Positions 19,811 through 55,693 of a stretch of 64,000 nucleotides of DNA are shown in pieces (the first letter of the stretch is position 1; every line of letters begins with the position of its first letter). Below the pieces are notes generated by a model. It was given only the letters and a program-made list of their open reading frames with translations. It was not told the DNA's origin and did not search any database. This stretch comes from Candidatus Moraniibacteriota bacterium. GTDB lineage: Bacteria > Patescibacteriota > Minisyncoccia > Moranbacterales > UBA9337. The translations under genes were made by a program, and so were the position numbers. The stretch spans positions 1,099 to 65,098 of the forward strand of contig JALSQF010000007.1 of assembly GCA_026985555.1 (NCBI GenBank), read 5' to 3'.

Positions 19811-19854
19811 AACTTTCTGGCTATTTAAATATCCATTTAAATAGCCAGAAAGTT
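19811..19854. repeat. Palindromic repeat family, copy 1
   Basis: AACTTTCTGGCTATTTAAAT-atcc-ATTTAAATAGCCAGAAAGTT (20-bp arms). Confidence 0.92.
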
Positions 19855-19870
19855 TTTTAAAAATGAACAC

Positions 19871-19942
19871 TTTACATACAACTTGACTATTGTTATAATT
19901 ATTAAATAATTAGTTATTTAATAAAAAAATAAACAAAGGAGG
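19871..19942 (+). promoter_or_regulatory. Promoter + boxA-like leader + SD of orphan gene
   Basis: TTTACA-17-TATAAT with TG extension, TAGTTATTTAATAA at 19911, AAAGGAGG before ATG 19948. Confidence 0.65.
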
Positions 19943-19947
19943 AAATT

Positions 19948-20487
19948 ATGCATAATTTTTTTTCTTTTTTATTGCAAAGTAATTGTGTTTTGAGTGTATG
20001 TATAATAAGTGTTATAACGGTTGTAATAGCTGGTTTATTTTTATGGTTGGAGCAAAAAAATAGAAATGAGATAATAGCTTTGTTTCATATTAGAGCTAGA
20101 TCTAATATTCTCAAAAATTATTTATCAAGGAAAAATAAATTATCAGAAGGTGAAATAACTATTCTTATGAATAGATGTGTTCAAATAAAATATTGGCTGG
20201 AACAGTTATCAGGAGAGTTTTATTTGACAAGAGCAGGCTTCTTAAAAAAGACAGATAAAACGAAACATAGGTTACCTCAAGCGAGTATGGTAAATTGCTC
20301 TGTGATTGTAGATGATTTAATTTGGGAGGAACACCAAGGAGTTTTTATTTTAGAATTAAATCTAGTGAATAAATCTAAAAAAACCGATATAGTTGTTTGG
20401 AAAAAACAAGGAAAAATAAAACTCCAACTAAAATTATTCTACAATATGAAAAAATTTCCTATTTTTGCGGATATGTTTTTTTCTTAA
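19948..20487 (+). CDS. Orphan hypothetical protein with N-terminal TM
   Basis: 179-aa ORF with strong SD, own promoter and terminator. Confidence 0.75.
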   Translation: MHNFFSFLLQSNCVLSVCIISVITVVIAGLFLWLEQKNRNEIIALFHIRARSNILKNYLSRKNKLSEGEITILMNRCVQIKYWLEQLSGEFYLTRAGFLKKTDKTKHRLPQASMVNCSVIVDDLIWEEHQGVFILELNLVNKSKKTDIVVWKKQGKIKLQLKLFYNMKKFPIFADMFFS

Positions 20488-20498
20488 ATTTTTAAAAT

Positions 20499-20535
20499 AA
20501 AAGGATCTAAGTTTTTTTAATTTAGATCCTTTTTT
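20499..20535 (+). terminator. Rho-independent terminator
   Basis: AAAAGGATCTAA...TTAGATCCTTTT followed by T-run, 11 nt after the stop. Confidence 0.7.
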
Positions 20536-20663
20536 GTTTTATTAAATTTTTAAGTTTATAAAAAATTAATCTTTTTCTAACAACTAAATAGATTAATCAA
20601 ATAGTTTGATTTTTTCTAACTTCTATTATAAATTTAAAAGAGTAAACAATTAAGAATAAAATT

Positions 20664-23600
20664 ATGTTTTCTTCTGTAGATGTGCATAAAAAAATAGCTG
20701 AAAGAGAAAAAGAAATATTAAAACTTTGGAAAGAAAAAAAAGCTTTTGAGAAATCGTTAAAATTAACTAAAAATAAACCAAGGTATACTTTTTATGATGG
20801 ACCTCCTTTTGCTACGGGAACACCACATTACGGACATATTGTAGCCAGTGTTATGAAAGACATGGTTCCTCGTTATTGGAGTATGCGAGGCTATTATGTG
20901 GAAAGACGTTGGGGTTGGGATTGTCATGGATTGCCCATTGAAAATATTGTAGAGAAGGAAATGGGTTCTCAAAAGAAAAAAGATATAGAAAAGATTGGTG
21001 TAGCTAAGTTTAATCAAATGTGTCGGAGTAAAGTTTTAAGTTATGTAGAGGACTGGAAGAAAGTTATTAATCGCTTAGGTCGTTGGGTAGATATGGAAAA
21101 TGCTTACAAAACTATGGATTTAGAATATATGGAATCAGTTTGGTGGGTATTTAAACAGCTTTATGATAAAAAACTTATTTATAAAAATTATCGTTCTTTG
21201 CATATTTGTCCTCGTTGTGAAACTACCCTTTCTCAATCAGAGGTAACCGAAGGATATAAGGATATAAAAGATTTATCAGTGATTGCTAAATTTAAACTAA
21301 AACCCAATCAAAAAATAAATAAGCAAGAAGTTAAGAACAATGCTTATATTTTAGCTTGGACAACGACGCCTTGGACATTGCCAGGAAACGTGGCTTTGGC
21401 AGTAGGTCCAAAGATAAAATATTCTGTAATAGAAGTCCAAGAAAATAATCAGCAAGAAATTTATATTATAGCGCAACCAAAAGTTAAAGAAATATTAAAT
21501 GAAACATATCAAAATTATAAAATTTTAGCAGAGGTAAAAGGAAAAGAATTAGTCGGTTTAAAATATGAACCATTATGGAACACTTATACTCAGGATAGAA
21601 ACTTAAAAAACAGAGAAAATGGTTGGCGAATAGTTGAGGCTGATTTTGTAACTACTAAAGAAGGAACGGGAGTAGTGCATATTGCTCCGGCTTTCGGAGA
21701 AGACGATATGAAATTAGGTAAAGAAAAAAAATTACCTTTTGTTCAACATGTGGGAATGGATGGAATAGTTGATAAAAAAGTAGAAGCGGTAGGTGGTTTA
21801 AATGTCAAACCAATTGATAATCCTCAATCCACAGATGTAGAGGTGATTAAATATTTAGCTAGTAAAAAACTTTTGTTTCACAAAGAAAAATATGAACATA
21901 GTTATCCTCACTGTTGGCGATGTGATAGTCCTTTAATTAACTATGCTACTTCTTCTTGGTTTGTAAAAGTTACTGCTCTTAAGAAAGAAGCAATTCAATT
22001 AGCTCAAAAAATTAACTGGTCTCCGGCACACATTAAAACAGGACGTTTCGGCAAGTGGCTAGAAGGAGCTAGAGATTGGTCAATTTCTCGTCAACGATTT
22101 TGGGCTTCTGTAATTCCTATTTGGGAATGTGATCAGTGTGGAAAAAGAAAAGTTTTTGGTTCTACACGAGAAATTAATCAAAAGTTAGGAAAATTTTTAG
22201 TTTTAAGACATGGTGAAGCTGAAAATAACATTAAAAAAATTTGTTCTTCTTTAGTAACAGATAAATATTCCCTAACAGAAAAAGGAAGAAAACAAGTAAT
22301 TGCAACGGCTAAAAAATTAGAAAAAGAAAAAATAGATCTTATTCTAGCTTCTGACTTAATAAGAACAAAGGAAACCGCCGAAATTATAGCTCAAAAATTA
22401 GGCGTAAAAATTATTTTTGATAAACGTTTAAGAGAGGTAAATGTAGGAAAGTTTAATGGGAAAACTTTTAATGAAATTAAAGATTTTAAAGAAAAATGGA
22501 ATCAAGGAAAAAATATTCAATTTCCTCAAGGAGATAGTTGGGAAAGTATTAAAGAAAGAGTAACTAATTTTTATAATGATATTTTTTTAAAGTATAGAAA
22601 CAAAAATAAAAATATTTTAATTATTTCTCATGCGGATATTCTAATAACTTTAGAAGCTATATTGAAAGGGAAGAATTATAAGGCGCAGATTAAAAAAATT
22701 TATCAAAATAATTATATTAAAAACGGGGAATTAAGAAAAATTAATTACAAATTACTAGATTTACACAAGCATATAGTAGACGGGATTACTTTTAGTTGTG
22801 ATAAAAGAGGATGTCAAGGACAAATGAAAAGAGTGCCAGACGTTTTAGATACTTGGTTTGATAGCGGATCTATGCCATATGCTCAAAAACATTATCCTTT
22901 TGAAAATAAAAAAATTTTTGACAAAACTTTTCCAGCTGATTTTATTGCAGAGGGACAGGATCAGACTAGAGCCTGGTTTTATTATTTACACGTATTAGCT
23001 ATAGCTTTAAAACACAAACCAGCCTTTTATAATGTTATAGTAAATGGAATTGTTTTAGCGGAAGATGGAAAAAAAATGAGTAAGAAATTAAAAAATTATC
23101 CTGATCCAATGGAAATGTTTGAGAAATATGGCGCTGATGCAGTTCGTTTTTACCTAATGAGTTCCCCAGTGGTAGCGGCGCAAAATTTAAATTTTTCTGA
23201 AAAAGAGGTGGCCGAAATTGTAAGAGGAACTATTAGGATGTTGTTTAATTCTTATAGTTTTTTTATTACTTACGCTAAAATTGATCATTGGAAACCCCAG
23301 AAAAAAAATAATTTAAAAAGAAAAAATTTATTGGATAGATGGATTATTTCAGAATTAAATTTGTTAGTTAGAGAATTTAATCACAAAATGGAGGCTTATC
23401 AACTGCATAAGGCCACTCGTTTATTACCTGATTTTATTGATAATTTATCTAATTGGTATATACGGCGTAGTCGTCGTCGTTTTTGGAAAAGTGAAAACGA
23501 CGAAGACAAACAAGAAGCTTATGAAACTTTATATTATGTTTTACTTACTTTAAGCAAAATTATTGCTCCAGTTATGCCTTTTCTAGCGGAGGAGATATAT

Positions 23601-24227
23601 TCTAATTTAGCAAATAGTTTTCAAAAAAAATGGCAATCAGTTCACTGGCAATCATTTCCTCAAAGTCAAGAAAATTTAATTGATGAAAAAATCAATCAGA
23701 AAATGAAAAAAACGAGAGAAATTATTAGAGAAGCTTTGCAGTTAAGATCACAAGCGCAAATTAAAGTGAGACAACCTCTCAGTGTTCTTTATTTAGATTT
23801 TTCTGATAATTTTAATGCAGATTTAAAAGAAGTCATTCAAGAAGAAGTGAATATTAAGAAAATTATTTTTTTGAAAAAGGAAAATAAAAAAGTATTAAAA
23901 GAAAATCAAAAAAATATTATTTGGAATGAAACAAAAACAATCGGATTAGATAAAAACATAACTAATGATTTAAAACTAGAAGGACAAGCTAGAGAAATTA
24001 TTCGTTTTATTCAGCAGTTACGTAAAAAAGCTAATTATAACTTAGACGATAGAATTCAAGTGACGTATCAAGGTAAGGAAGAAGTTTGGCAAAGGTTTGG
24101 AGATCTGATTTCTAAGGAAGTTTTAGCCGCCCAAGTAAGTAATTCTTATTCTCAAGTAAAAAATTTTGATATAAAAGACAAGCAAGAAATAGAAAATGAT
24201 TGGTTAGAAATAAAATTAAAAAAATAG
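20664..24227 (+). CDS. ileS: Isoleucyl-tRNA synthetase (type 2) with inserted histidine-phosphatase domain
   Basis: DGPPFATGTPHYGH, GWDCHGLP, WTTTPWTLP, DWSISRQRFW, WFDSG, KMSKK; RHG-containing insert at aa ~510-696. Confidence 0.96.
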   Translation: MFSSVDVHKKIAEREKEILKLWKEKKAFEKSLKLTKNKPRYTFYDGPPFATGTPHYGHIVASVMKDMVPRYWSMRGYYVERRWGWDCHGLPIENIVEKEMGSQKKKDIEKIGVAKFNQMCRSKVLSYVEDWKKVINRLGRWVDMENAYKTMDLEYMESVWWVFKQLYDKKLIYKNYRSLHICPRCETTLSQSEVTEGYKDIKDLSVIAKFKLKPNQKINKQEVKNNAYILAWTTTPWTLPGNVALAVGPKIKYSVIEVQENNQQEIYIIAQPKVKEILNETYQNYKILAEVKGKELVGLKYEPLWNTYTQDRNLKNRENGWRIVEADFVTTKEGTGVVHIAPAFGEDDMKLGKEKKLPFVQHVGMDGIVDKKVEAVGGLNVKPIDNPQSTDVEVIKYLASKKLLFHKEKYEHSYPHCWRCDSPLINYATSSWFVKVTALKKEAIQLAQKINWSPAHIKTGRFGKWLEGARDWSISRQRFWASVIPIWECDQCGKRKVFGSTREINQKLGKFLVLRHGEAENNIKKICSSLVTDKYSLTEKGRKQVIATAKKLEKEKIDLILASDLIRTKETAEIIAQKLGVKIIFDKRLREVNVGKFNGKTFNEIKDFKEKWNQGKNIQFPQGDSWESIKERVTNFYNDIFLKYRNKNKNILIISHADILITLEAILKGKNYKAQIKKIYQNNYIKNGELRKINYKLLDLHKHIVDGITFSCDKRGCQGQMKRVPDVLDTWFDSGSMPYAQKHYPFENKKIFDKTFPADFIAEGQDQTRAWFYYLHVLAIALKHKPAFYNVIVNGIVLAEDGKKMSKKLKNYPDPMEMFEKYGADAVRFYLMSSPVVAAQNLNFSEKEVAEIVRGTIRMLFNSYSFFITYAKIDHWKPQKKNNLKRKNLLDRWIISELNLLVREFNHKMEAYQLHKATRLLPDFIDNLSNWYIRRSRRRFWKSENDEDKQEAYETLYYVLLTLSKIIAPVMPFLAEEIYSNLANSFQKKWQSVHWQSFPQSQENLIDEKINQKMKKTREIIREALQLRSQAQIKVRQPLSVLYLDFSDNFNADLKEVIQEEVNIKKIIFLKKENKKVLKENQKNIIWNETKTIGLDKNITNDLKLEGQAREIIRFIQQLRKKANYNLDDRIQVTYQGKEEVWQRFGDLISKEVLAAQVSNSYSQVKNFDIKDKQEIENDWLEIKLKK

Positions 24228-24238
24228 TATTTAAAAAC

Positions 24239-24258
24239 CGCAATCAAATTTGATTGCG
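24239..24258. terminator. Bidirectional terminator-like palindrome between convergent ileS and orphan gene
   Basis: CGCAATCAAATTTGATTGCG perfect 20-bp palindrome with A-rich and T-rich flanks. Confidence 0.65.
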
Positions 24259-24299
24259 ATTTCTTGTTTTCACTAAAATTCTATTTAAAATTTAAAATA

Positions 24300-24821
24300 T
24301 TATTTTCGTTTCATCTTCCAAAAACATTCTCTCCTCAAATTTATAACTTCACTTTGAGAGGAGGTGTAATTTTTGTCAAAAAAACTAATCATATTGAAAA
24401 TATTTTTCTCATCGTAAATTTTATCAAGACTTTTGAAAAATTTATCAACTAGATCAACATCTTCTCTTACTGAAAGGTCTAAAGTGTGAATAATATTTGA
24501 TTTAAGTTGAAGCAATACACTGCATATTGTCACACAATATTTTTCGCTATTCAGAGCCTTACCTGTTTTATATAGGTATTCACCGTAAAAAAGTAAGTAA
24601 CGCTCCTTCTTTTTTTCATCATTTTCTTTTTTAATCTCTCTTAAAATATTTTTATTTAGGAGAGATATAATTTCATTACCCATAATCCGTAGTTGATTCT
24701 GATAAGTCGTTTTTATTTTTTCCTTAATTTCCTGAAAAAATAAAAAAAGAAGATAGAAAATAATAACAAAAAAAACAATAACAACAGAATGTTGCGTAAA
24801 AAGATTCGTGTAATTTTCCAT
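24300..24821 (-). CDS. Orphan hypothetical protein with N-terminal TM
   Basis: 173-aa ORF, SD AAAGGAGG, own promoter. Confidence 0.75.
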   Translation of the reverse strand: MENYTNLFTQHSVVIVFFVIIFYLLFLFFQEIKEKIKTTYQNQLRIMGNEIISLLNKNILREIKKENDEKKKERYLLFYGEYLYKTGKALNSEKYCVTICSVLLQLKSNIIHTLDLSVREDVDLVDKFFKSLDKIYDEKNIFNMISFFDKNYTSSQSEVINLRRECFWKMKRK

Positions 24822-24826
24822 TTCTT

Positions 24827-24897
24827 GCCTCCTTTTTTATTCTTTATTTTAAAAAACTTAATTCAAATTATTGTATTGATTTTTTCTTTTTTGTCAA
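24827..24897 (-). promoter_or_regulatory. Promoter + boxA-like leader + SD of orphan gene
   Basis: Minus strand TTGACA-16-TACAAT, then AAGTTTTTTAAAA, then AAAGGAGG. Confidence 0.6.
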
Positions 24898-24941
24898 GTT
24901 TTCCTGTTTTTTTGTTGATTGTTTTAATTATTTTGTTCTTT

Positions 24942-24987
24942 TTTCTTTCTGGCTATTTAAATGGATATTTAAATAGCCAGAAAGAAA
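24942..24987. repeat. Palindromic repeat family, copy 2 (inverted relative to copy 1)
   Basis: TTTCTTTCTGGCTATTTAAAT-ggat-ATTTAAATAGCCAGAAAGAAA; loop GGAT is the reverse complement of copy 1 loop ATCC. Confidence 0.92.
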
Positions 24988-25092
24988 TTTTAATTTAACG
25001 AAAAAGTTTTTAAAATGAAGTTTTATTTTTTGTTTAATAGAGAAGAATATTTATTTGCTCCTTGATTAAATTTATTGTATAATTCAACTAAT

Positions 25093-26370
25093 ATGGAAAA
25101 GAAAAAGAAAAAATCTTTTTTTGTTTTAATGCTTTTGCTACTAATTATTAGTTTAGTAATAACTAATAAAAGTTTTTATTTTGCTAAAGTATTTGCTTCA
25201 GAATCAGAGGAAAAAGTTTCTAACAAAAAAGTAAAAGAAACTAAAAGTGATATTAAAACTTTAGAAAATAAAATAGAAAAAGCCGAGGCTTACAAAAAAT
25301 CTTTAGAAAATAAATTAAACCATATACAAGGATCTGTTTATTATACTCAAAAAGAAATTAATAAAACAAAACGATTAATTAAAGATACGGAAGAAAATAT
25401 TGCTAGAATGGAAGCAGAAATAAAACAAATTAATAATCGTTTAGAAGTGCAAAAAAAAATTCTTGCTGGTCTTACTTGGCAATTTTATAAAGAGTCCAAG
25501 AAACCTCTTTTGTTAGGATTACTAGGAGAAGGAAGTTTAGCTCAAGCTACTTTTGAAAAAGAAAGAATAACTATTTTAAAAGAAAAGATTCTTGCTTTAA
25601 TTGACGATATAAAAAAAGATAAAGAAAAGTTTACTAAAAGTAAAGAAAAATTAAGTGATAGCAAGGAAGAAAAGAATAAGCTTCTTTCTTTAAAACAAGC
25701 GCAACAACATAGCTTGCTACAAGAAAAACAAATTACTCAATCAAGAGTAGCTAAAAAAAACAGAGAAATTGCTAATATGCGAGCGCGTTTAAGTCGTTTA
25801 AGAGTCAATTTATCTAGAATGTTAGGTAAAGTATATAATACTCAAGACATAGAAGAAGCCGCTAAAATAGCGAGTAAATCTACAGGAGTGCGGAAAGATT
25901 TTTTGATGGGTATGTTGGTGGTAGAGTCAGATTTAGGTCGTTATACGGGAGGTTGTAATTACAAGGAAAGCAGAATGAGTAGTTATCGGAAAAAAATATT
26001 TAAAGATATTTGTAAAAGTTTAGATTTAAATTATAAAAAACAAAAAGTATCTTGTCCTCCTAAAAGTTATCGTGGAACAGGAGGAGCGATGGGGGTAGCG
26101 CAATTTATGCCAGATACTTGGAATGCTTACAAAACATCCATAGCTTTGCACACTGGACATAATCCTCCTAATCCCTGGAATTTAGTAGACGGAGTAACCG
26201 CTATGGCTTTAAAATTGGCTAAGGTGCCAGGTGTAACTTCTCATAAAAAATCAGGAGAGAAAAATGCTGCCAAACTTTATCTTTCGGGTTCTACCTCTAG
26301 TAAATTTAATTGGTATGCTGAAAGAGTTTTATATTGGGCGGATCATTATGAAAAATTATTAAATAATTAG
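25093..26370 (+). CDS. Coiled-coil protein with C-terminal lytic transglycosylase (SLT) domain
   Basis: Signal/TM, long coiled coil, VES catalytic Glu, GAMGVAQFMPDTW; likely ATG at 25093. Confidence 0.85.
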   Translation: MEKKKKKSFFVLMLLLLIISLVITNKSFYFAKVFASESEEKVSNKKVKETKSDIKTLENKIEKAEAYKKSLENKLNHIQGSVYYTQKEINKTKRLIKDTEENIARMEAEIKQINNRLEVQKKILAGLTWQFYKESKKPLLLGLLGEGSLAQATFEKERITILKEKILALIDDIKKDKEKFTKSKEKLSDSKEEKNKLLSLKQAQQHSLLQEKQITQSRVAKKNREIANMRARLSRLRVNLSRMLGKVYNTQDIEEAAKIASKSTGVRKDFLMGMLVVESDLGRYTGGCNYKESRMSSYRKKIFKDICKSLDLNYKKQKVSCPPKSYRGTGGAMGVAQFMPDTWNAYKTSIALHTGHNPPNPWNLVDGVTAMALKLAKVPGVTSHKKSGEKNAAKLYLSGSTSSKFNWYAERVLYWADHYEKLLNN

Positions 26371-26382
26371 AAAAATAAAAAT

Positions 26383-27141
26383 ATGGAAAACAAAAACAAT
26401 ATTTTAAATACTGCACTACTGGCTGGAATTTTTGTTATGTTAGCTTACTTAATTTTTATTGAAAAAAATATTAATGTGGAAATGATAAATACTAAGGGAG
26501 AAGAAAAAACTATTGCCGTTTCCGCTCAAGCAGAAAAATTTATTAAACCTGACACAGCTTCTTTAAATTTTTCTCTATTAAAAAAATCTAGTAGTGTTGC
26601 CACAGCTACTGATTCAATTAATAAACGTAGCCAGTCTTTAATAAAAGCATTAAAAAAACTAGGTGTTCAAGAAAAAGATATTAAAACAATAAATTATAAT
26701 ATCTATCCAGAATATTTTTATAATGAAGGAAAAAAGAAATTTGATGGATATAGGGTAACTCAACAATTTAAAGTAATTATACGTGATTTAGATAAAGCTT
26801 CTCAAATACTATCTTTAATAAATAATTCAGAAGTAGATAACGTTTCGCAGTTAAATTTTTATATAGATAAAACTGATGAAATAAAAAATAATCTTAGAAA
26901 AGAAGCTATTAAAAAAGCGAAAGAAAAAGCTCGGCAATTGTCAAGAGATTTAGGCGTTTCTTTGAATAAAATTGTGGGTTTTCAAACAAATAAAGGTGGC
27001 CCTTTCTATCAAGAAGCAAAAGCTATGACTTGGGATGCAAGCAAAGTGGAAGGAAACAATAAGAAAAGTGAGCCTATTTTACCTTCAGGAGAAAATAAAT
27101 TTCAAGAAAAAGTAACTATTATTTATAAAATAGATAATTAA
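26383..27141 (+). CDS. SIMPL (DUF541) domain protein
   Basis: KPDTA, DIKTINYNIYPEY, AIKKAKEKARQLSRDLGV. Confidence 0.9.
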   Translation: MENKNNILNTALLAGIFVMLAYLIFIEKNINVEMINTKGEEKTIAVSAQAEKFIKPDTASLNFSLLKKSSSVATATDSINKRSQSLIKALKKLGVQEKDIKTINYNIYPEYFYNEGKKKFDGYRVTQQFKVIIRDLDKASQILSLINNSEVDNVSQLNFYIDKTDEIKNNLRKEAIKKAKEKARQLSRDLGVSLNKIVGFQTNKGGPFYQEAKAMTWDASKVEGNNKKSEPILPSGENKFQEKVTIIYKIDN

Positions 27142-27148
27142 AATAATT

Positions 27149-27820
27149 ATGAGTAGGGTTATTTTAGATATAGAAACAATTGGTAAAAATTTTGATGATT
27201 TAGATAAAAAATCTCAAGAATATCTTTTGCAATTTGCGCAAGACAAAAAGGAAAAAGAAGAAATAAAAGATCGTCTAGCTCTCTATCCTTTTACGGGAGA
27301 AATAGTTGCTATTGGTTTGTTAAATCCAGACACAAATAAAGGTGTAATGTATTATCAAAACAACAAAAAAGGAAAAGAAATTTTTCAAGAAAAAGGAATT
27401 AAATTTGAAACAGGATCAGAAAAAGAAATTTTAAAAAATTTTTGGGAAGACATACGCAGTTATCAGCAAATAATTACTTTTAATGGACGAGGATTTGACG
27501 CTCCTTTTTTACATTTACGGAGTGCTTTATTGAAAATTAGACCAACTAAAAATTTAATGCCTTATCGTTACGATTATAAAATTCATTGTGATTTAATGGA
27601 GCAACTAACTTTTTATAGCGCAACTAGAAAGTTTAATTTAGATTTTTATACGCGATCCTTTGGTATTAAAAGTCCTAAGGATGACGGTGTAGATGGTTCT
27701 CAAGTGGGAGAATTATATAAAAAAGGAAAATATAAGGAAATTGCAAGATATTGTGTGCGTGATTTGCAAGCTACACGAGAATTGTATGAATATTGGGAAA
27801 AATATTTAAAATTGGAATAG
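27149..27820 (+). CDS. Stand-alone DEDD(y) 3'-5' exonuclease (PolB-exo/RNase H-like)
   Basis: LDIET (ExoI), TFNGRGFD (ExoII), YCVRD (ExoIII). Confidence 0.88.
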   Translation: MSRVILDIETIGKNFDDLDKKSQEYLLQFAQDKKEKEEIKDRLALYPFTGEIVAIGLLNPDTNKGVMYYQNNKKGKEIFQEKGIKFETGSEKEILKNFWEDIRSYQQIITFNGRGFDAPFLHLRSALLKIRPTKNLMPYRYDYKIHCDLMEQLTFYSATRKFNLDFYTRSFGIKSPKDDGVDGSQVGELYKKGKYKEIARYCVRDLQATRELYEYWEKYLKLE

Positions 27821-27825
27821 GGTTT

Positions 27826-28437: not shown

Positions 28438-28456
28438 ATTTAATAATAAAAAAAAT

Positions 28457-28897
28457 ATGTGGAATCAAAATCAAAATAATCAAAAACAAGAGAATTCACA
28501 AGAAAAAAAAGTTAATCTAGATAAATTAAAAAAAGATATTCAGTTTTCTCAAAAAAAAGAACAAGAAAATAGTCAAGAAAAAAGTGAACGAATTTCATCT
28601 TTAGAAAAAAAAGAGAATATTTATGATAAAATTTTAAGAAGCGTCAAAAAACAAGTAGAGGAAGATACTTCTCCTCAAGAAATAAAAAAAGATGCAGAAG
28701 AAATAGCAGATGAGAAAAGTGCGGAAGATCAGGTTAAAATGTTAGTAAAATTAGCTCAACACAGAGGGGTAGTGCATGCAGTAAAAGTAGCTCAACATAT
28801 GGAAAATTATTATATTTTGGATAGACTTCATGACGAAATGAGTTTAGGAGAAAGGATGTATCAATCTTTAGAAAAGGAAAATTTGATTAAAGAATAA
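28457..28897 (+). CDS. Hypothetical protein upstream of VirD4-like ATPase
   Basis: 146-aa ORF; C-terminal GVVHAVKVA...YILDRLHD. Confidence 0.8.
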   Translation: MWNQNQNNQKQENSQEKKVNLDKLKKDIQFSQKKEQENSQEKSERISSLEKKENIYDKILRSVKKQVEEDTSPQEIKKDAEEIADEKSAEDQVKMLVKLAQHRGVVHAVKVAQHMENYYILDRLHDEMSLGERMYQSLEKENLIKE

Positions 28898-35288: not shown

Positions 35289-35399
35289 TAAAATAATAAG
35301 ATAATTATTTTAATTTTTTTATTATTTAATAAAAATAAAAATAAAAAATAATTTTTTGATTTTTTTAGTAGTTTTACTAAAAAAAATTAAAACAAAAAA

Positions 35400-35939
35400 A
35401 TGGTTAATATTGACTTTCATGAACAAGTAGAACAACAAAATGAAGAAAACAAAGGGGCCGTTTCATTTTTAACGGGATGGCAGATATCTGTTCTTCTTCT
35501 TCTGGTAGTTTTTACTATTTATGGAGTAAGTTACTATTATAAAAAAATAGTAAAAAATCAAGTGAAAAAAGTAGAATTAGCTATTCAAAAAGAAAAACAA
35601 ACTGTTAATAAAGATGATATTAAAACGGTAGTTAATTTTGTGAAAAGAAAAAATGTAATTGAAAAAGTTAATTCTCAAGAAAACTCTGAAGCTTTAGCTA
35701 AACTTTTAATGCTGGAGAAAAATATTAATCAAGGAATTTATCTAACATCTTATAATTATTCTAAAAATCAGTCAGTAATTGAAATAAAAGGGATAGGAGC
35801 TAATTATCATACCGTTGCTCAGCAAGTATATAATTTTAAAAATGATAGTCAAAATGTTCGTTTTGTAAAAATACATACAGTAAATAAAAATGAAGATGGT
35901 GGAGTTGATTTTGGTTTAACAATTGGTCTTAAAAACTAA
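35400..35939 (+). CDS. pilN: PilN-like pilus alignment protein
   Basis: TM + coiled coil + ferredoxin-like C-terminus, positioned between pilM and pilO. Confidence 0.7.
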   Translation: MVNIDFHEQVEQQNEENKGAVSFLTGWQISVLLLLVVFTIYGVSYYYKKIVKNQVKKVELAIQKEKQTVNKDDIKTVVNFVKRKNVIEKVNSQENSEALAKLLMLEKNINQGIYLTSYNYSKNQSVIEIKGIGANYHTVAQQVYNFKNDSQNVRFVKIHTVNKNEDGGVDFGLTIGLKN

Positions 35940-47574: not shown

Positions 47575-47593
47575 AATATTTTTAACTAAAAAA

Positions 47594-49078: not shown

Positions 49079-49096
49079 AAAAAAATAAATTTAAGG

Positions 49097-49169
49097 TGCG
49101 CCGTGAGGGATTCGAACCCCCGACCATCAGCTTAAAAGGCTGCTGCTCTACCACCTGAGCTAACGGCGC
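49097..49169 (-). tRNA. tRNA-Lys(UUU)
   Basis: GCGCCGT/ACGGCGC acceptor stem, D-arm GCTCAGGTGGTAGAGC, anticodon loop CTTTTAA, T-loop GTTCGAATC; followed by CC-T, so CCA is not fully encoded. Confidence 0.96.
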
Positions 49170-49318
49170 TTAAAAATATTGCAAAAAGAACAACAATTAA
49201 TATTATTGACCAAACTAAAAAAATAGTCAATACTTTAAAATAACTTTCATTTTTAATATTATGTGTTATTATAACATATAATATTGTTTATAAAACATTA
49301 TAATATTACCAAAATCTT

Positions 49319-50338
49319 ATGTCTGAAAAAAGAAGCATAGATATTTCTACAAAAATTATTCTTAAAATAGTAATTGTCTTTTTAGGATTATGGTTTTTGT
49401 TTTTAATTCGTGATATTTTAGTGTTGCTAATTATAGCTTTAATATTAACAGCGGCTTTAGAACCTTTAATAAATTGGTTAGAAAAGAAAAAAATACCTCG
49501 TTCTTTAAGTATAATGTTAGTTTATTTCTTTCTTTTTTTAACAATAGGAGGAATGTTTTCTTTTTTGATTCCAGCTGTTATTTATCAGTTTAAAGAATTA
49601 ATGCAAAAATTTCCTCAGTATCTTAATAGTTTTAGTGAGCAATTTTATATTTTTAAAAATTATTTACACGATCAAGGCGTTAATTTAGAAATAGAACAAT
49701 TAGTTAATCAAGCGGGAAATGGATTAACCTATTCTTCTAAAAGTATTTTTTCCACTACCTTAGGAGTTTTTTCTGGTTTTATTTCTACGATAGCTATTTT
49801 TTCTTTGACTTTTTATATGTTAGTTAGAAAAGATGGAATAGAAGAGTTTTTACAAGTGATCATTCCTAAAAATTATATTTCTAGAGTAATTGAAATAACA
49901 CATAAAATAAAACATAAATTAAGTTGGTGGATGTTAGGACAATTATCTATAATGTTTATTATTTTTCTTTTAGATTTTACGGTATTGTATTTATTAAATA
50001 TTCCTTATGCTTTAACTTTAGCTGTTATAGGAGGAACATTAGAGTTGATTCCTTATGCTGGACCTATTTTATCTACAATCATTGCTTCAATAGTCGGTTT
50101 TTTTGTTTCTCCTATAATAGGATTTTTTGTTTTAGGGAGTTATATTATTATTCAACAAATAGAAAATCATATTATTTTACCTCAAATAATGAAAAAGGCA
50201 GTGGGGCTTAATCCAGCTATTGTTATTTTAGTTATTTTAATTGGAGCTAAATTAGCCGGGATTATGGGAGCTATTTTAGCTGTTCCTTTAGCCACTGCTT
50301 TAGGTGTAGTTATTAAAGAAATTCTAAGAGATAAATAA
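49319..50338 (+). CDS. AI-2E family transporter (UPF0118)
   Basis: IPYAGP, QQIENHIILP, GLNP, GIMGAILAVP. Confidence 0.93.
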   Translation: MSEKRSIDISTKIILKIVIVFLGLWFLFLIRDILVLLIIALILTAALEPLINWLEKKKIPRSLSIMLVYFFLFLTIGGMFSFLIPAVIYQFKELMQKFPQYLNSFSEQFYIFKNYLHDQGVNLEIEQLVNQAGNGLTYSSKSIFSTTLGVFSGFISTIAIFSLTFYMLVRKDGIEEFLQVIIPKNYISRVIEITHKIKHKLSWWMLGQLSIMFIIFLLDFTVLYLLNIPYALTLAVIGGTLELIPYAGPILSTIIASIVGFFVSPIIGFFVLGSYIIIQQIENHIILPQIMKKAVGLNPAIVILVILIGAKLAGIMGAILAVPLATALGVVIKEILRDK

Positions 50339-51304
50339 ATGGTTTCTAAAAATCAATTAGTTAAAAATATTTGGACAACAATTTGTTTTTATGATGCTCT
50401 GAATTATCCTCTAACTAGCTTTGAAATTTGGAAATTATTGATTAATGAAAAATCTCTTTCTTCTTCTAAAAAGTTTAATGTTAAAGAGAATCAATTTTCC
50501 TTAGATGAAATTGAAGATGCACTTTTGGAAAATAGCTTTTTGAAATCAAAAATTAAATCTCAAAAAGGATTTTATTTTTTAAAAGGGCGAGAATACTTAA
50601 TATGGCAACGTCTTCAAAAAGAAAAAATTTCTGGGCAAAAAATAAAAAGATTAAAAAGGATAATAAAATTTCTGCGTTGGATTCCTTTTTTAAGAGCAAT
50701 TTTAATAACAGGAAGATTAGCCTCTAAAACTGCTGATGAAAAAAGCGATTGGGATATTTTAGTAATAACTCAAGCGGGCAGAATTTGGACAGCGAGAACC
50801 GGGATAACTTTAATAACAGAATTAATTGGAAAAAGAAGAAAAGGTAAAAAAATAAAAGACAGAATTTGTTTGAATTATTTTATTACTGAACGAAGTCTTA
50901 CTATAAGCGTGCAGGATTTGTTTGCCTCTCATGAATATTTTTTTGCTATTCCTTTATTTGATACGGGTGATGTCTTTTTTCGTTTTAGAAAAAACAATAT
51001 TTGGATTAAAAAAATACGGCCTCATTATTTTTTAGAAAATAATTCTTCTTTTTGTTTAAAAGATGATTATTTGAGTAAATTTTTAAGAAATAAACTAGAA
51101 TTTTTAATTAATTTTCTTCAAGGAGATAAAATTGAAAAATGGTTATCTCAATGGCAAACAAAAAAAATTAAGAAAAATCCGCTTACTCATTTAAAAGGTA
51201 GTTTAATAAGAGCTTCTTCTAGTGAATTAGTTTTTCTTCCTCGTCCTGCTGGACCGCGGATTTTTGAAAAATTTAAAAAAATTAAAAAAGAAGCATTTTT
51301 TTAA
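50339..51304 (+). CDS. Hypothetical protein with Pol-beta-type nucleotidyltransferase motif
   Basis: YPLT N-terminus; ITGRLAS...SDWDILVI resembles hG[GS]x9-13DxD; R.CLNYF. Confidence 0.7.
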   Translation: MVSKNQLVKNIWTTICFYDALNYPLTSFEIWKLLINEKSLSSSKKFNVKENQFSLDEIEDALLENSFLKSKIKSQKGFYFLKGREYLIWQRLQKEKISGQKIKRLKRIIKFLRWIPFLRAILITGRLASKTADEKSDWDILVITQAGRIWTARTGITLITELIGKRRKGKKIKDRICLNYFITERSLTISVQDLFASHEYFFAIPLFDTGDVFFRFRKNNIWIKKIRPHYFLENNSSFCLKDDYLSKFLRNKLEFLINFLQGDKIEKWLSQWQTKKIKKNPLTHLKGSLIRASSSELVFLPRPAGPRIFEKFKKIKKEAFF

Positions 51305-51318
51305 AAACTAACTTAATA

Positions 51319-51345
51319 AAAAAACGATTTTAAAATCGCTTTTTT
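51319..51345. terminator. Bidirectional terminator between convergent genes
   Basis: A-run, CGATTTTAAAATCG palindrome, T-run. Confidence 0.6.
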
Positions 51346-51372
51346 AATTTATTTTTTAGCAAAAGAAGAATA

Positions 51373-51549
51373 TTAAACAGTAACTTTATTTAAAGTTTTA
51401 ATGCAACGAGAGCAAATTCTCATTTTTTTACCCTCAATAGTTTTAGTTTGTAAGTTTATTTTAAATTTTCTTTTTGTGGCAATGTTAGAATGACTGCGAG
51501 AATGGCCAGATTGAGTTCCACGTCCACAAATTTCACAAGTTCTACTCAT
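51373..51549 (-). CDS. rpmB: 50S ribosomal protein L28 (Zn-ribbon form)
   Basis: Manual translation: [58 protein letters not shown]; absent from ORF track. Confidence 0.96.
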
Positions 51550-51623
51550 AAAATAAATTTTAATATTGCTTAATCATAATTTTTAGGTTAGCATAAGAAA
51601 TATAATTTGTAAAGTGTAAATCA

Positions 51624-52325
51624 ATGGCTGAAACAATTTTAATTTTATTTCAAGTGATTGTTTTAATTATGTCAGTAGTTATTCATGAGGTATCTCATGG
51701 TTTAGCAGCTTTGTATTTAGGTGATTCTACAGCGCAACGCGCTGGTAGACTAACACTTAATCCATTGAAACACCTGGATCTCTGGGGTTCTATCATTGTT
51801 CCTCTTTTAATGATTGTTACTTTAGGAATTGGTTTTGGTTGGGCAAAACCTGTTCCGTATAATCCTTATAATTTAAAGGATCAAAAAAATGGTCCAGCGC
51901 TAGTGGCTTTAGCTGGTCCACTGGCTAATTTAATAGTAGCTTTAGTTTTTGGTTTAGCAGCAAGATTTATTCATCTTAATTATTTAGCGCAGCAGGATAT
52001 TATAAAGGAATTTCTAGCTAGTAATTATGAAAATCTTAGTTTAAGTATCTCAGGATCTTTTCTGGCTATTTTTTATTTATTATTTATTATGATAGTGGTA
52101 ATCAACGTTTTGTTAGCTTTTTTTAATTTAATTCCTATTCCTCCTTTAGATGGTTCTAAAATTTTATTTGCTATAATTCCCTTAAAGATGGAAACTAAAA
52201 TTGTTTTAGAGCAATTTGGTTTTATGCTATTGTTAATTTTTATTTTCTTTTTTTCTCCTTTGCTAAGTTATTTTTTACAGGGAAGCTTAAGGCTATTCTT
52301 TCATTATGTAGTAGGAATTGGATGA
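51624..52325 (+). CDS. Site-2 protease (M50 family)
   Basis: HEVSH, GWAKPVP, AGPLAN, FNLIPIPPLDG. Confidence 0.95.
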   Translation: MAETILILFQVIVLIMSVVIHEVSHGLAALYLGDSTAQRAGRLTLNPLKHLDLWGSIIVPLLMIVTLGIGFGWAKPVPYNPYNLKDQKNGPALVALAGPLANLIVALVFGLAARFIHLNYLAQQDIIKEFLASNYENLSLSISGSFLAIFYLLFIMIVVINVLLAFFNLIPIPPLDGSKILFAIIPLKMETKIVLEQFGFMLLLIFIFFFSPLLSYFLQGSLRLFFHYVVGIG

Positions 52326-52334
52326 TTTAAGTTT

Positions 52335-52871
52335 ATGAAAAATGTTTTACCTTTAAATTTTTATGAAAAACATCCTCAAGAAGTAGCTCAAGCATTGATA
52401 GGAAATTATCTGGTTAGAGAATTTAGAGGGAAAATTATTAAAGGGATAATTACAGAAACAGAGGCTTATTATAATGAAACTGATTTAGCTTCTCATGCGC
52501 GCTTTGGAAAAACTAAACGTAATTATCCGATGTTTGGTCCAGCAGGAAAAGTTTATGTTTATTTAATTTATGGAATGTATTATTGTTTTAATGTGGTTAC
52601 AGAAAAAAAGAATCAACCAAGCGCTGTTTTGATTAGGGCTGTAAAAATTAAAGATGTAGATTATCAGAAAACTAACGGACCAGGGAAATTAACTCGCCAG
52701 TTAAGAATTTCTAAAAGTTTAAATTATTGGAATTTAACCAAAGGGAAAAAAATTTGGATTGAAAAAGGTAAAAAAATTTCTCTAAATAAAATTGAACAAA
52801 CTCCTAGAATTGGAGTAGAATATGCGCAACAATCAAGCCAATGGTTATGGAGATTTGTGTTAAAATTTTAG
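52335..52871 (+). CDS. 3-methyladenine DNA glycosylase (MPG/AAG family)
   Basis: ITETEAY, DLASH, YVYLIYGMY, AVLIRA, GPGKL, PRIGV. Confidence 0.95.
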   Translation: MKNVLPLNFYEKHPQEVAQALIGNYLVREFRGKIIKGIITETEAYYNETDLASHARFGKTKRNYPMFGPAGKVYVYLIYGMYYCFNVVTEKKNQPSAVLIRAVKIKDVDYQKTNGPGKLTRQLRISKSLNYWNLTKGKKIWIEKGKKISLNKIEQTPRIGVEYAQQSSQWLWRFVLKF

Positions 52872-52891
52872 TATTTTATAAATTATAATTT

Positions 52892-53920
52892 ATGCTTTAT
52901 TTAATATCATTTTTTGCTTCTTTTCTTACCGCTTTTTTGGCATTATTTTTATTAGTTAAAATAACTTCTTATTTTAAAATTAAAAGCAGAAAAAACAAAA
53001 GACACATTCATGCTATTCAAGTTTCTCGCTTAGGAGGAGTGGCAATTATTTTAGCTTTTGTAATAGGAATATTAGTTAATCCTTATCTTGTTTTAGAGAA
53101 TCAACATTTAGCTATTATCTTATCTAGTGGAATAATTTTAATAATTGGATTAGCAGATGATTTTTGGAAATTAGATTGGAAAACTCAACTTTTTTTTCAG
53201 GTAGCCATAGCTATTTTAATTTTTATTTTAGGCATTCAAATAGAATATATTACTAATCCTTGGGGTGGAATGTTTTTTTTAAAAACAGGACGTTGGCTTT
53301 TACCTAGTTTGTTGTTAGGTATTATTTGGATTGTAACTTTAATGAACGCTATGAATTGGTTAGACGGATTAGATGGTTTAGCAGGAGGAATAATCTTAAT
53401 TGGAAGTTTTATTATTTTTGCCTTAAGTTTAAAACCAGAAGTTGATCAACCGCCTTTAGCTATTATAGCCGTTAGCTTAATGGGCGCTATTTTAGCTTTT
53501 CTTTTTTTTAATTTTTATCCAGCTAAAATTATGGCTGGAACAAGCGGTTCTATGTTTATGGGATTTATTCTAGCAGTATTAGCTATTTTTGCGGGAGCTA
53601 AAATAGCTACTACTTTATTAGTTTTAATTCTTCCTTTACTAGATGCTTTTTGGGTTTTATTAGAACGTTTTTATAGGGGTACATCTTTAGTTAATCCAGA
53701 CCAGAGGCATTTACATTATAAACTTTTAAAGTTAGGTTATTCTCCACGTCAAATTGCTTTTTTCTTTTATGGTTTAACTATATTAATGGGTTGGTCAGCT
53801 TTACAATTATCAACAAGAGAAAAATTGAAAATTCTTTTAGGCGTAGCTTTTATTTTAGTAATGACTATTATTATTGTTACTAATCTACTAGAAAAAAAGT
53901 CAAAGAAAAATAATTTTTAA
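52892..53920 (+). CDS. MraY/WecA/TagO family undecaprenyl-phosphate sugar-1-phosphate transferase
   Basis: RLGG, GLADD, NAMNWLDGLDGL, FNFYPAKIMAG, HLHY. Confidence 0.92.
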   Translation: MLYLISFFASFLTAFLALFLLVKITSYFKIKSRKNKRHIHAIQVSRLGGVAIILAFVIGILVNPYLVLENQHLAIILSSGIILIIGLADDFWKLDWKTQLFFQVAIAILIFILGIQIEYITNPWGGMFFLKTGRWLLPSLLLGIIWIVTLMNAMNWLDGLDGLAGGIILIGSFIIFALSLKPEVDQPPLAIIAVSLMGAILAFLFFNFYPAKIMAGTSGSMFMGFILAVLAIFAGAKIATTLLVLILPLLDAFWVLLERFYRGTSLVNPDQRHLHYKLLKLGYSPRQIAFFFYGLTILMGWSALQLSTREKLKILLGVAFILVMTIIIVTNLLEKKSKKNNF

Positions 53921-53937
53921 AATAAGAAAAAAATTTT

Positions 53938-54816
53938 ATGTGGAGATGGAGAAAAATAGTTTATAGTGTTTTATTAATTATTTTTGTATTAGATGTTGTT
54001 TTAGCTTTAATAATTAGAAGCAGTTTTTTTTCTCAAAAATTTCAAATAATATTTTTTAACATAGGACAAGGAGACGCTATTCTAGTTCAACAAGGAAAAA
54101 ATCAAGTTTTAATTGATGGAGGAAGATCGGAAAAAAAACTTTTAGAAAAGTTAGGAAAATATGTGCCTTTTTGGGACAGAGAGATAGAAGTGATAGAAGC
54201 TACTCATCCTGATAGTGATCACATTACAGGATTAATTGGAGCTTTAAAAAATTATAAGGTTGATTATATTTTAAAAACCAGAAATCAGAGCCAAACAAAG
54301 ACTTTTCAGGCTTTTCAGCAAGCTATCAAGGAAGAAGTAAGAAATGGCGGAAAAATTTTAGAAGCTTCTCAAGGACTGAAAATTAAGTTTCCGCAAGGAG
54401 GAGAAGCTAAAATAATATATCCTTTTAACCCACTTCAAAATAATTCTTTTAACAAAAATGAAAACAGTATAGTTACTCAAATTCTTTATAAAAAAAATTC
54501 TTTTTTACTAATGGGAGATCTTCCTAGTCAACAAGAAAGAGAATTAATTAAACATCATTTATCTCTTCAGTCGCAAGTTTTAAAAATAGGGCATCATGGC
54601 TCTCGTTCGTCTAGTTGTAATGAATTTTTAACTTATGTACATCCTCAAGTGGCTATTATTTCAGTGGGAAAAAATAGTTATGGGCATCCCCATAAAGAGG
54701 TTTTAAAGCGATTAGTTCAACATCAGATTAAATTTTGGCGGACGGATAAAGTAGGAGATATAGAATATCTTTGCAACAAGGATGAGTGTCATTTGGTTTT
54801 ATCTCAAGAGAAATAA
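53938..54816 (+). CDS. ComEC-type metallo-beta-lactamase nuclease domain (stand-alone)
   Basis: IGQGDA, LIDGG, THPDSDH, LLMGD, HHGS, SVGKNSYGHP. Confidence 0.9.
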   Translation: MWRWRKIVYSVLLIIFVLDVVLALIIRSSFFSQKFQIIFFNIGQGDAILVQQGKNQVLIDGGRSEKKLLEKLGKYVPFWDREIEVIEATHPDSDHITGLIGALKNYKVDYILKTRNQSQTKTFQAFQQAIKEEVRNGGKILEASQGLKIKFPQGGEAKIIYPFNPLQNNSFNKNENSIVTQILYKKNSFLLMGDLPSQQERELIKHHLSLQSQVLKIGHHGSRSSSCNEFLTYVHPQVAIISVGKNSYGHPHKEVLKRLVQHQIKFWRTDKVGDIEYLCNKDECHLVLSQEK

Positions 54817-54825
54817 ACAATTAGT

Positions 54826-54875
54826 TTTCTGGCTATTTAAATATCCATTTAAATGGATATTTAAATAGCCAGAAA
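54826..54875. repeat. Palindromic repeat family, copy 3 (perfect 50-bp palindrome)
   Basis: TTTCTGGCTATTTAAATATCCATTT|AAATGGATATTTAAATAGCCAGAAA; contains both ATCC and GGAT spacers and three ATTTAAAT. Confidence 0.93.
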
Positions 54876-55047
54876 GAAATTTTACCTAAATTGGCTTAAA
54901 AAATAACTTAACTTTTTAAGGTTTACTTTTAAAAAATCAGAAGAAAAAATTTTTTAAATTCAATTTTTGGAAAATCTAGAATTTGAGTTTAAGAGGATAA
55001 GTTAAAAAGTTTGCTAAAAATATCTATTAAGTAGTATTAATAATATA

Positions 55048-55117
55048 TTGACAAATTATTTTAAATATGTTATTTCTAGACAACTAGTTATTTAACAAAA
55101 AAAGAAATCAAGGAGGA
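55048..55117 (+). promoter_or_regulatory. Promoter + boxA-like leader + SD of orphan gene
   Basis: TTGACA-17-TATTTC (TG-extended), TAGTTATTTAACAA at 55085, AAGGAGG before ATG 55125. Confidence 0.6.
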
Positions 55118-55124
55118 TTAAAAA

Positions 55125-55643
55125 ATGAAAAAGTTTATTATTGTTGTGTTGGTGGTTTTGTGTTTTGTTGAGATTTCTTACGGATATAGAGTTTCAATAA
55201 ATGAGGATATTGAGGGCAGGGGATTTTCTTCAATAGAAGTTAAATTTCCGTTTTTTGACAAGAAATCTAAATGTTATTATCAAGAAAACTTCTATCCAGG
55301 TAAAAATGGTAATGTTGTTTTTCTATGTACCGATCCTGGAGATGGTAAAATAATTTATGCCAGAAGACGTTTTTCTATAACTGACCCGCCGGTTTGTATT
55401 ATAACAGAATACAAACCTCCAGCCATTTGGGAATGGGGAAGTTTAGGATGTACTAGTGAGATAACAATGATTAAAAAAATATATTTTAAATGGGGGAATA
55501 AAACAGTAGTAAGCATTCCTCCTTATCAGTTTCCTGAAAAAGGTATTACTGATAAACAGGTTGCTTCTGTGCAGTTGTTTATGAAATTTTTTGAAGATGT
55601 TTTTCAAAAAAAAGTAAAAAAGAAAATAAAATATCACTGGTGA
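55125..55643 (+). CDS. Orphan secreted hypothetical protein
   Basis: 172 aa, signal peptide MKKFIIVVLVVLCF, strong SD. Confidence 0.78.
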   Translation: MKKFIIVVLVVLCFVEISYGYRVSINEDIEGRGFSSIEVKFPFFDKKSKCYYQENFYPGKNGNVVFLCTDPGDGKIIYARRRFSITDPPVCIITEYKPPAIWEWGSLGCTSEITMIKKIYFKWGNKTVVSIPPYQFPEKGITDKQVASVQLFMKFFEDVFQKKVKKKIKYHW

Positions 55644-55667
55644 TATTTTATTTTCTTTTAAAATGAG

Positions 55668-55693
55668 AACCTTGCTATTAAGCAAGGTTTTTT
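55668..55693 (+). terminator. Rho-independent terminator
   Basis: AACCTTGCT-atta-AGCAAGGTT plus T-run. Confidence 0.75.

Follow-up and report, generated by a model that had tools for sequence, protein, structure and literature searches.

A promoter, boxA-like and Shine-Dalgarno leader grammar on lineage-specific genes of a Moranbacterales genome

The 64-kb stretch analysed here (the window; C7:1099-65098, on contig C7 of the Candidatus Moraniibacteriota genome designated G000) contains three genes for orphan proteins (ORFans 1 to 3), each of which is preceded by a palindrome, a promoter or promoter candidate, a boxA-like motif and a Shine-Dalgarno (SD) sequence, and is followed by a terminator-like hairpin. 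The original prediction for this DNA was that these parts form a cassette system, i.e., standardised, self-contained expression units for rapidly turning-over envelope proteins. The same parts were sought throughout the genome (740,893 bases in 11 contigs, ~28% GC, 94.9% complete) and in 40 relatives of the same order, none of them from its genus (41 genomes in all). The grammar of leader and terminator is real and genome-wide, is restricted to the lineage-specific class of genes, and is independent of the palindrome.

An expression grammar on lineage-specific genes

The three leaders were located where they had been placed, at 19911, 24859 (minus strand) and 55085. The palindrome cores precede the start codons of the 179-, 173- and 172-amino-acid open reading frames (ORFs) by 99, 127 and 252 nt, and the first two copies read ATCC in the direction of their ORF, as had been claimed. 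Downstream hairpins were found at all three units by a shuffle test (z = -6.4, -4.6 and -4.7 for units 1 to 3, with equally good folds in 0, 0 and 1 of 200 shuffles). A -35/-10 pair had likewise been assigned to each unit; those of units 1 and 2 are good, but unit 3 combines a good -35 element with a weak -10 (TATTTC) and goes uncalled in the consensus scan. The three proteins are indeed orphans, and each has an N-terminal hydrophobic stretch (KD15 of 3.0, 3.4 and 3.1). No Pfam or PHROG family was found for any of them, the single Pfam match being below the cut-off (E 0.019). Homologue searches, which covered proteins of 0.55-1.75 times the query length (fused forms fall outside that range), returned only the query for ORFans 1 and 3, and ORFan 3 was also without a usable Atlas match. 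One relative of ORFan 2 was found (P0004, 80% identity), with no locus for it in the genome contigs searched.

Genome-wide statistics were based on our own ORF scan of G000 (710 ORFs of at least 60 amino acids), from which short, GC-rich SD-less and contig-edge ORFs were dropped to leave 700. Genes with an SD of at least 6 nt before the start codon were counted as SD genes. Three relatives, G004 (923 kb, whole), G013 (917 kb, minus 16 kb) and G016 (774 kb of about 1.1 Mb), served to classify genes as conserved (tblastn E<1e-10 in at least two of the three) or absent (no tblastn match at E<1e-3 in the three), the absent class being wider than ‘ORFan’ in that it takes in some recognisable foreign genes. 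The SD was present before 5/450 conserved, 7/93 patchy and 42/157 absent genes (p 1e-21). The split was repeated in the relatives, with conserved and absent genes giving 5/315 vs 37/238 in G004, 3/302 vs 47/266 in G013 and 5/368 vs 26/159 in G016. The 16S rRNA of G000 retains the anti-SD (its tail includes CCTCC). Short SD words are not enriched at the starts of conserved genes, GGAG being found before 8/450 starts and at 19/450 further upstream. Leaderless core genes were considered and rejected, as -10 boxes lie 5-9 nt before 44/263 starts compared with 51 and 34 at control positions.

The boxA-like motif is found mainly at SD genes. The pattern GTT[ACT]TTTAA[AC]A, which was derived from the original prediction's own examples, occurs 70 to 15 nt before the start in 21/54 SD genes and 2/275 non-SD genes with spacers of at least 80 nt. 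The unfitted Escherichia coli boxA, with at most two mismatches, gave 15/54 and 2/275 under the same spacer limit, and 0/54 on the reverse strand. Beyond G000, box, SD and ATG were found together in 17/41 genomes of the order, compared with none for the reversed pattern, and box and SD in 20/201 genomes of the phylum, with 37 matches outside G000 compared with 3 for the reversed box.

A looser box pattern combined with an SD defines 32 units in G000, of which 28 have no match in the three relatives, one is patchy and three are conserved. Their layout is a sigma70 promoter, boxA 4-27 nt past the -10 element, an unstructured A-rich spacer, a strong SD, an ORF and an intrinsic terminator; a perfect terminator-like stem with a U tail follows 17/32 units compared with 22/218 conserved genes. 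Both the self-contained layout and its tie to lineage-specific genes therefore hold genome-wide. The size of ~175 amino acids taken as standard was a coincidence (the units encode 63-582 amino acids, median 154), and envelope proteins are not the rule, an N-terminal hydrophobic stretch being found in 12/32 units, 101/445 conserved genes and 39/100 SD-less absent genes. The GC content of the units equals that of the host (median 0.283 vs 0.287). A shared protein family was ruled out, since comparison of the 32 unit proteins gave a single weak pair (E 0.004) and otherwise no cross-match. No integrase or attachment site particular to the units was found in G000, whose only two tyrosine recombinases are of ordinary size. 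Integron cassettes were also rejected: the units are dispersed, have their own promoters, mostly lack the palindrome and form no integrase-side array. What had been called a cassette system is thus better described as an expression grammar on moron-like genes.

Two further elements carry parts of this grammar. At C11:~35390-35410 (+), inside a box-and-SD unit with three consecutive SD-like motifs, 18 nt are perfectly complementary to the 3' end of the 16S rRNA and are not followed by a start codon; this is possibly a ribosome-binding RNA. A 17-mer comprising SD and ATG is repeated with a 125-nt period at two contig ends, C1:36916-37057 and C2:53-319 (-), where a tandem array probably broke the assembly.

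Table 1. Parts of the three ORFan units and their palindromes, in window positions
Feature	Position	Strand or orientation	Basis or remark
Palindrome 1, REP-like short form	19817..19848 (stem to 19811-19854)	loop ATCC on +	27 nt past stop of upstream gene
Promoter 1, sigma70-type TTTACA-17-TATAAT, TG preceding -10	19871..19899	+	predicted from sequence
boxA-like motif 1, GTTATTTAATA	19913..19923	+	motif scan
SD 1, AAAGGAGG	19935..19942	+	complementary to 16S tail with CCTCC
ORFan 1, 179 amino acids, N-terminal membrane segment	19948..20487	+	no homologue in searches
Terminator-like hairpin 1, intrinsic type, U tail	20499..20533	+	folding vs shuffles
Terminator-like hairpin 2, intrinsic type, between ORFan 2 and convergent ileS	24235..24262	-	folding vs shuffles
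ORFan 2, 173 amino acids, N-terminal membrane segment	24300..24821	-	single homologue P0004 (80%); hypervariable in strain X3
SD 2, AAAGGAGG	24828..24835	-	sequence
boxA-like motif 2, GTTTTTTAAAA	24847..24857	-	motif scan
Promoter 2, sigma70-type TTGACA-16-TACAAT	24870..24897	-	predicted
Palindrome 2, REP-like short form, within divergent spacer	24949..24980	loop GGAT on +	repeat scan
Palindrome 3, REP-like long perfect form	54829..54872	strand-neutral	12 nt past stop of metallo-beta-lactamase-domain gene
Promoter candidate 3, TTGACA-17-TATTTC, weak -10 with TG before	55048..55076	+	not called by consensus scan
boxA-like motif 3, GTTATTTAACA	55087..55097	+	1 base off the G000 16S-leader motif GTAATTTAACA
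SD 3, AAGGAGG	55110..55116	+	sequence
ORFan 3, 172 amino acids, signal-peptide-like N terminus	55125..55643	+	no homologue in searches
Terminator-like hairpin 3, intrinsic type, on both strands	55665..55692	+	folding vs shuffles

Among the neighbouring genes, ileS (20664-24227) encodes an internal insert of ~180 amino acids (residues ~510-690) that is missing in most relatives and is a separate ORF in some; the insert presumably resembles a histidine-phosphatase domain. A gene cluster of VirB6/PrgI/VirB4-type appearance (by eye) lies at 55814-62083, immediately after ORFan 3. A single tRNA was the only match in an Rfam scan of the window.

The palindrome is a separate REP-like repeat

The 14-nt arm of the palindrome occurs exactly 48 times, at 25 loci of G000 that are all intergenic: 15 long perfect copies, 8 short copies (on the plus strand, 3 with ATCC and 5 with GGAT) and 2 halves. 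Genes resembling tuf, gyrA, smc, clpP and thrS are among its neighbours (here and below, such gene labels were assigned by eye), as are tRNAs and the leaders of 16S and 23S rRNA. The 16S (C7:71.9-73.4 kb) and 23S (C3:112.6 kb onward) genes are unlinked, and each has its own promoter and an upstream palindrome.

According to the original prediction the palindrome is part of the unit, and on a full version of this idea it would be the insertion or recombination site of envelope-gene cassettes of ~175 amino acids. All three window palindromes precede a unit, and a unit after tRNA-Asn (C10:58726, within C10:58570-59513; an ORFan with box and SD, GC-rich at 0.42) stands between two palindromes that share an upstream hairpin and flank. 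Copies touch an SD gene on either side in 10/25 cases (length-weighted p 0.02, one of four tests). However, a copy lies upstream of a box-and-SD unit in only 5/25 cases (6/25 for any SD gene) and only 5/32 units have one, so that 20/25 copies are not before a unit and 27/32 units have none upstream; the palindrome was rejected as a cassette marker on these counts. The apparent link (p 0.004 over all spacers) weakened to p 0.08 with spacers of at least 100 nt and to p 0.08 in a length-weighted permutation, leaving no association with orphans once spacer length was controlled. The ATCC orientation, which had been read as a feature of the system, is found in only 3/4 short copies preceding a unit. 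Five extra copies, on contigs outside G000, stand beside housekeeping-type or other SD-less genes, and none of them precedes an SD-led orphan. The arm is missing from 39/40 relatives, although the grammar is present there, and neither a Y1 transposase nor a reverse transcriptase was found in G000. The cassette reading is therefore largely refuted and must be regarded as very improbable.

The palindrome is a young, lineage-specific REP-like repeat that lands in long spacers, those of the units included, and is unrelated to the units. The one relative with any trace of it, G016, has a single arm, and G004, G013 and G016 each have an unrelated multi-copy repeat of their own. Four copies (C3:134165, C3:148330, C7:71165 and C11:35550) share a downstream flank of 60-120 nt, which implies spread by duplication. 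Two other roles were rejected: that of parS, because a distinct 14-mer family, which we take to be parS-like, is multi-copy in G000, G004, G013 and G016; and that of a universal terminator, because 7/25 copies lie within divergent spacers. The palindrome itself is ordinary.

Turnover behind retained control signals

The units are moron-like: a single gene is enclosed by a promoter and a terminator of its own, and its presence between conserved genes varies. Between two congeners, 23/55 and 20/62 SD genes were shared, compared with 664/842 and 680/832 other genes. The sites of the unshared SD genes (36 and 43) were empty in 4 and 3 cases and held other content in 12 and 14, the remainder being unplaceable. 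Part of this ‘other content’ is the same gene, diverged to 25-29% identity although its SD is conserved; in one pair, at 46% identity, the leaders are near-identical. Shared genes with box and SD are under purifying but relaxed selection (pN/pS 0.40, n=9, vs 0.20, n=526; p 0.001). In orthologous leaders 72/88 box positions are conserved compared with 113/172 spacer positions. A two-gene unit of G004 with box and SD (L053:~12010-12900) lies between ~45-nt direct repeats, which duplicate the adjacent gene's 3' end, and the empty counterpart of this unit in G013 (L126:16800-16980) has one copy of the repeat. For 4/32 units of G000 the flanking genes are adjacent, with a shorter spacer, in relatives. 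The flanks of the three window sites are not syntenic in G004, G013 and G016, and no empty-site joint at these loci was found among the 15 of 89 matches listed (four runs).

Strain variation was seen within the window. The comparison with strain X3 covered ORFans 1 and 2. Over 253 nt of ORFan 2, X3 differs from G000 by 14 substitutions and 9 inserted bases, compared with 13 differences in the adjacent 4589 nt (p 9e-12). Of the six listed substitutions, five alter the residue and two are at a coding-strand A. A diversity-generating retroelement was rejected, given the lack of adenine bias and of a detectable RVT_1 domain in G000. A competence-type gene set was noted by eye in the window, and allele exchange by natural transformation would be a route.

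The predicted rapid turnover is thus upheld by the poor sharing of SD genes between congeners and by the hypervariability of ORFan 2, but does not extend to ORFan 1, which lies within the adjacent 4589 nt of strain X3 and shows no sign of hypervariability. It is shown in part that the coding part changes quickly, through allele swaps or insertion and loss, behind control signals that are retained.

The boxA-like motif, bS21 and possible control of the units

The consensus fitted to the boxes of G000 is AGTT(C/T/A)TTTAA(A/C)AA. The gamma-proteobacterial boxA consensus is GYTCTTTAANA, in which C4 is critical for NusB/E in E. coli (10.1101/091223, from the part of the text available); positions 1-3 and 5-11 of the leader motif fit it, on the transcribed strand. 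Although the phylum-wide pattern allowed A, C or T at position 4, C was found in 29/37 matches. After a recognisable promoter, the box is present in 15/18 SD genes and 1/68 others in G000, which is the fitted set, and, in genomes outside the fitting, in 4/15 vs 1/70 in G004 and 6/21 vs 2/74 in G013. The 16S leaders of G000, G004, G013 and G016 contain AGTAATTTAACAA, AGAACTTTGACAA, AGAACTTTAACAA and TGAACTTTAACAA, respectively, ahead of a conserved processing-stem sequence; in rrn leaders boxA precedes boxC (PMC8632103, available portion). The RNase P RNA has a box before it in G000 and G016, not in G004 or G013, and in two units the box comes after tRNA genes; 2/39 tRNAs have one before them. 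A boxA before rpsJ or rplC was dismissed as a conserved site, the high-scoring rplC site of G000 being missing in G004 and G013. NusB is encoded in 41/41 genomes, and G000 has NusA, NusG and an S10 gene (recognised by eye after tuf). Only one of the 41 genomes gave a Rho match, which sits at the end of a contig in a bin with 5% contamination. A high-scoring motif followed by a GC-rich, self-complementary-looking non-coding stretch was also observed at C2:16281-16480 (+).

On this comparison the motif is plausibly a true boxA. Several observations weigh against that identification. Position 4 is A, T and A in window copies 1-3, and is C in just 14/32 units; the 16S leader of G000 has A there as well. 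At positions 2-3 the mRNA boxes mostly read TT, and the rRNA boxes of this family TA or AA; no high-scoring box was found ahead of the 23S gene of G000 (best score 5.3); and the motif begins 4-8 nt past the -10 element in 6/16 cases in G000, where it may overlap the start site. G016 has no post-promoter enrichment (0/13 SD genes vs 4/79 others). SuhB, which the E. coli complex needs, was not found in G000 (as Inositol_P; genome 95% complete).

The SD-less state of the conserved genes has a known counterpart. In Flavobacterium johnsoniae the anti-SD is hidden by bS21, bS18 and bS6, and ribosomes without bS21 read SD-led mRNA faster (PMC9976891, in the portion available). In the accessible part of a survey of anti-SD loss, bS21 is described as often absent from Parcubacteria (PMC9297842). 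A diverged rpsU, the gene for bS21, was identified in G000 at C10:53993-54247 (+); Pfam alone misses it, and its product shares 68% identity with a protein of G013, itself a match to solved bS21 chains. Its sequence would qualify, for this order, the reported absence (PMC9297842, as far as available). A pattern based on the first codons of rpsU, not requiring an SD, was found in 15/41 genomes, and the SD GAAAGGAGGT, GAAAGGGGGT or a close variant was present in 15/15; counting G016, the SD is kept in 16/16. Among conserved genes the rpsU SD ranks 3/450, 2/333, 1/317 and 1/384 by pairing energy in four genomes. Pairing was computed with ViennaRNA duplexfold, so that the -13 kcal/mol threshold of PMC9976891 cannot be applied to these values. 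Across the phylum, an rpsU-like pattern was matched 10 times outside G000, and by eye 8 of these matches have an SD-like site; they were not verified as rpsU and not counted. Tyr53 of bS21 is invariant in the three relatives and present in G000, in a numbering of its own that is unaligned to Flavobacterium bS21 with its Tyr54. Together, SD-less core genes and a strong rpsU SD suggest a bS21-dependent hidden anti-SD as in Bacteroidia, and bS21-dependent exposure of the anti-SD in this lineage is rather likely. Three points run counter to its use by the units: their SDs pair at -8.3 to -14.6, more weakly than that of rpsU (-15.8); the SD is missing from 115/157 absent-class genes of G000; and the strongest two belong to HU-like and Hsp20-like genes, which look like genes for abundant proteins, a pattern that plain high expression fits equally.

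About 32 moron-like accessory transcription units, the window genes among them, share one grammar, and an explanation of it can be proposed. The rRNA boxA of the lineage, when present on nascent mRNA, would load NusB-S10 with NusA and NusG; loading of NusB-S10 at the box is probable. As neither Rho nor SuhB was found in G000, the published suhB mechanism of repression plus Rho cannot apply whole, and protection from Rho would not be the job of the box. Its most likely role, very tentatively, would be to hold back or uncouple translation, as at E. coli suhB, and so to report the free pool of Nus factors. The SD would act as a second gate, SD-led mRNAs being read best by ribosomes with an exposed anti-SD.

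The closest competitor of such gating is a module for high output, in which the promoter, a boxA acting through fast, pause-resistant elongation or as an S1-binding enhancer, and a strong SD maximise expression, and only rpsU is autoregulated. The strongest SDs of G000, which are on HU-like, Hsp20-like and pilin-like genes, would suit it, as would the unstructured, A-rich unit leaders and the binding of S1 to boxA in E. coli (cited in PMC8632103, available portion). However, the many ribosomal and other highly expressed core genes lack both SD and box, and in relatives the box keeps close to the promoter but lies at variable distances, up to ~100 nt, from the SD, unlike a translation enhancer. 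The S1 gene, rpsA, was not found in G000 and is present in 10/10 relatives; it is probably on an unbinned contig, and its absence may reflect an assembly gap. Ungated high output is possible but doubtful. The box could also be a promoter start, an initially transcribed element or AT-rich noise rather than an RNA signal. This would account for the start offsets of only 4-8 nt from the -10 element, for 210 sites scoring at least 10 within the coding sequence of a 28% GC genome, and for the modest excess of box over spacer conservation in orthologous leaders. It does not account for offsets that extend to 27 nt, the strand specificity, the preference for C4 across the phylum, the contrast between SD and other genes after promoters (in the fitted set), or the boxes after tRNA genes and before RNase P RNA, and so is a poor candidate, with little to commend it.

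Inherited signals offer another account, in which the units came as morons from mobile DNA, such as phages, that relied on SD and boxA, and the leaders are leftovers with no present regulatory role. Patchy presence, the four units of G000 whose flanks are adjacent in relatives and the filled and empty pair with the ~45-nt repeat in another genus are what it would predict. Set against it are the host-like GC content, the lack of a PHROG match for the window ORFans, and the retention of leaders while the coding part falls to 25-46% identity at the same site. In addition, box and SD were not enriched in viral contigs (23 matches vs 17 for the reversed box, at one spacing), and a phage origin of the leader was rejected on that count. 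Inheritance without present function is therefore unlikely, and the palindrome-based cassette discussed above more so than any of these alternatives.

Weighed against plain high output, net gating of the accessory units by Nus factors and ribosome state is a close call that falls slightly short of even. The most extended form of this gating is a second expression mode in this order of Patescibacteria. Fast-evolving accessory genes, many of them membrane-anchored, would be transcribed like stable RNAs (boxA and Nus factors, no Rho) and translated mainly by bS21-lacking ribosomes with an exposed anti-SD. Together with rpsU and the HU-, Hsp20- and pilin-like genes they would make up a regulon switched by ribosome state, possibly serving the free stage in which a host is sought, in cells that have very few transcription factors. 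As a whole this picture is speculative and rather unlikely to hold in every part.

The grammar provides a sequence rule by which the accessory, fast-evolving genes of uncultured Patescibacteria can be recognised. It also offers a testable answer to two questions, namely the function of NusB and boxA where Rho is lacking, and the use of a retained anti-SD by cells whose core genes are SD-less. Should the gating prove true, control by specialised ribosomes, which in Bacteroidia concerns the single gene rpsU, would extend to a whole regulon. There are separate precedents for boxA on mRNAs, for morons, and for SD-less genomes whose rpsU has an SD; in the literature searched, which covered subscription journals thinly, no description was found of accessory units with box and SD, or of the rpsU SD in Patescibacteria.

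REP and REPIN elements go with RAYT transposases. The palindrome resembles them in being short, near-identical, strictly intergenic and lineage-confined, with shorter and longer forms. It differs in its AT-rich, ATTTAAAT-based sequence, in having just 25-30 copies, and in that no Y1_Tnp gene (PF01797) was found in the binned contigs of G000, although one is present in 20/41 genomes of the order. Phage morons are promoter-gene-terminator units between conserved genes, and the units share with them the self-contained single-gene form, patchy presence and some empty sites; unlike phage morons, they lie in a cellular chromosome, have host-like GC and a common boxA and SD leader, and gave no phage homologues in the searches made.

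Compared with the SD-blind ribosomes of Bacteroidia (PMC9976891, as far as available), the same 16S anti-SD, SD-less conserved genes and an rpsU SD near the genome's strongest are found here. The phylum is unrelated, and dozens of further genes have a strong SD. Of the NusB-NusE-NusA-NusG-SuhB complex of rrn operons, G000 encodes NusB, S10, NusA and NusG, and has a similar motif in its 16S leader. The nearest parallels to the units are the boxA-controlled mRNAs of E. coli suhB and Citrobacter CKO_00699, which likewise have a boxA consensus in the 5' leader shortly before the SD (10.1101/091223, available part). In gamma-proteobacteria, by the stricter exact matching reported in the same available text, there are 0-7 matches per genome, whereas here there are ~32 targets in 0.74 Mb, C4 is degenerate in G000, and the targets are lineage-specific accessory genes.

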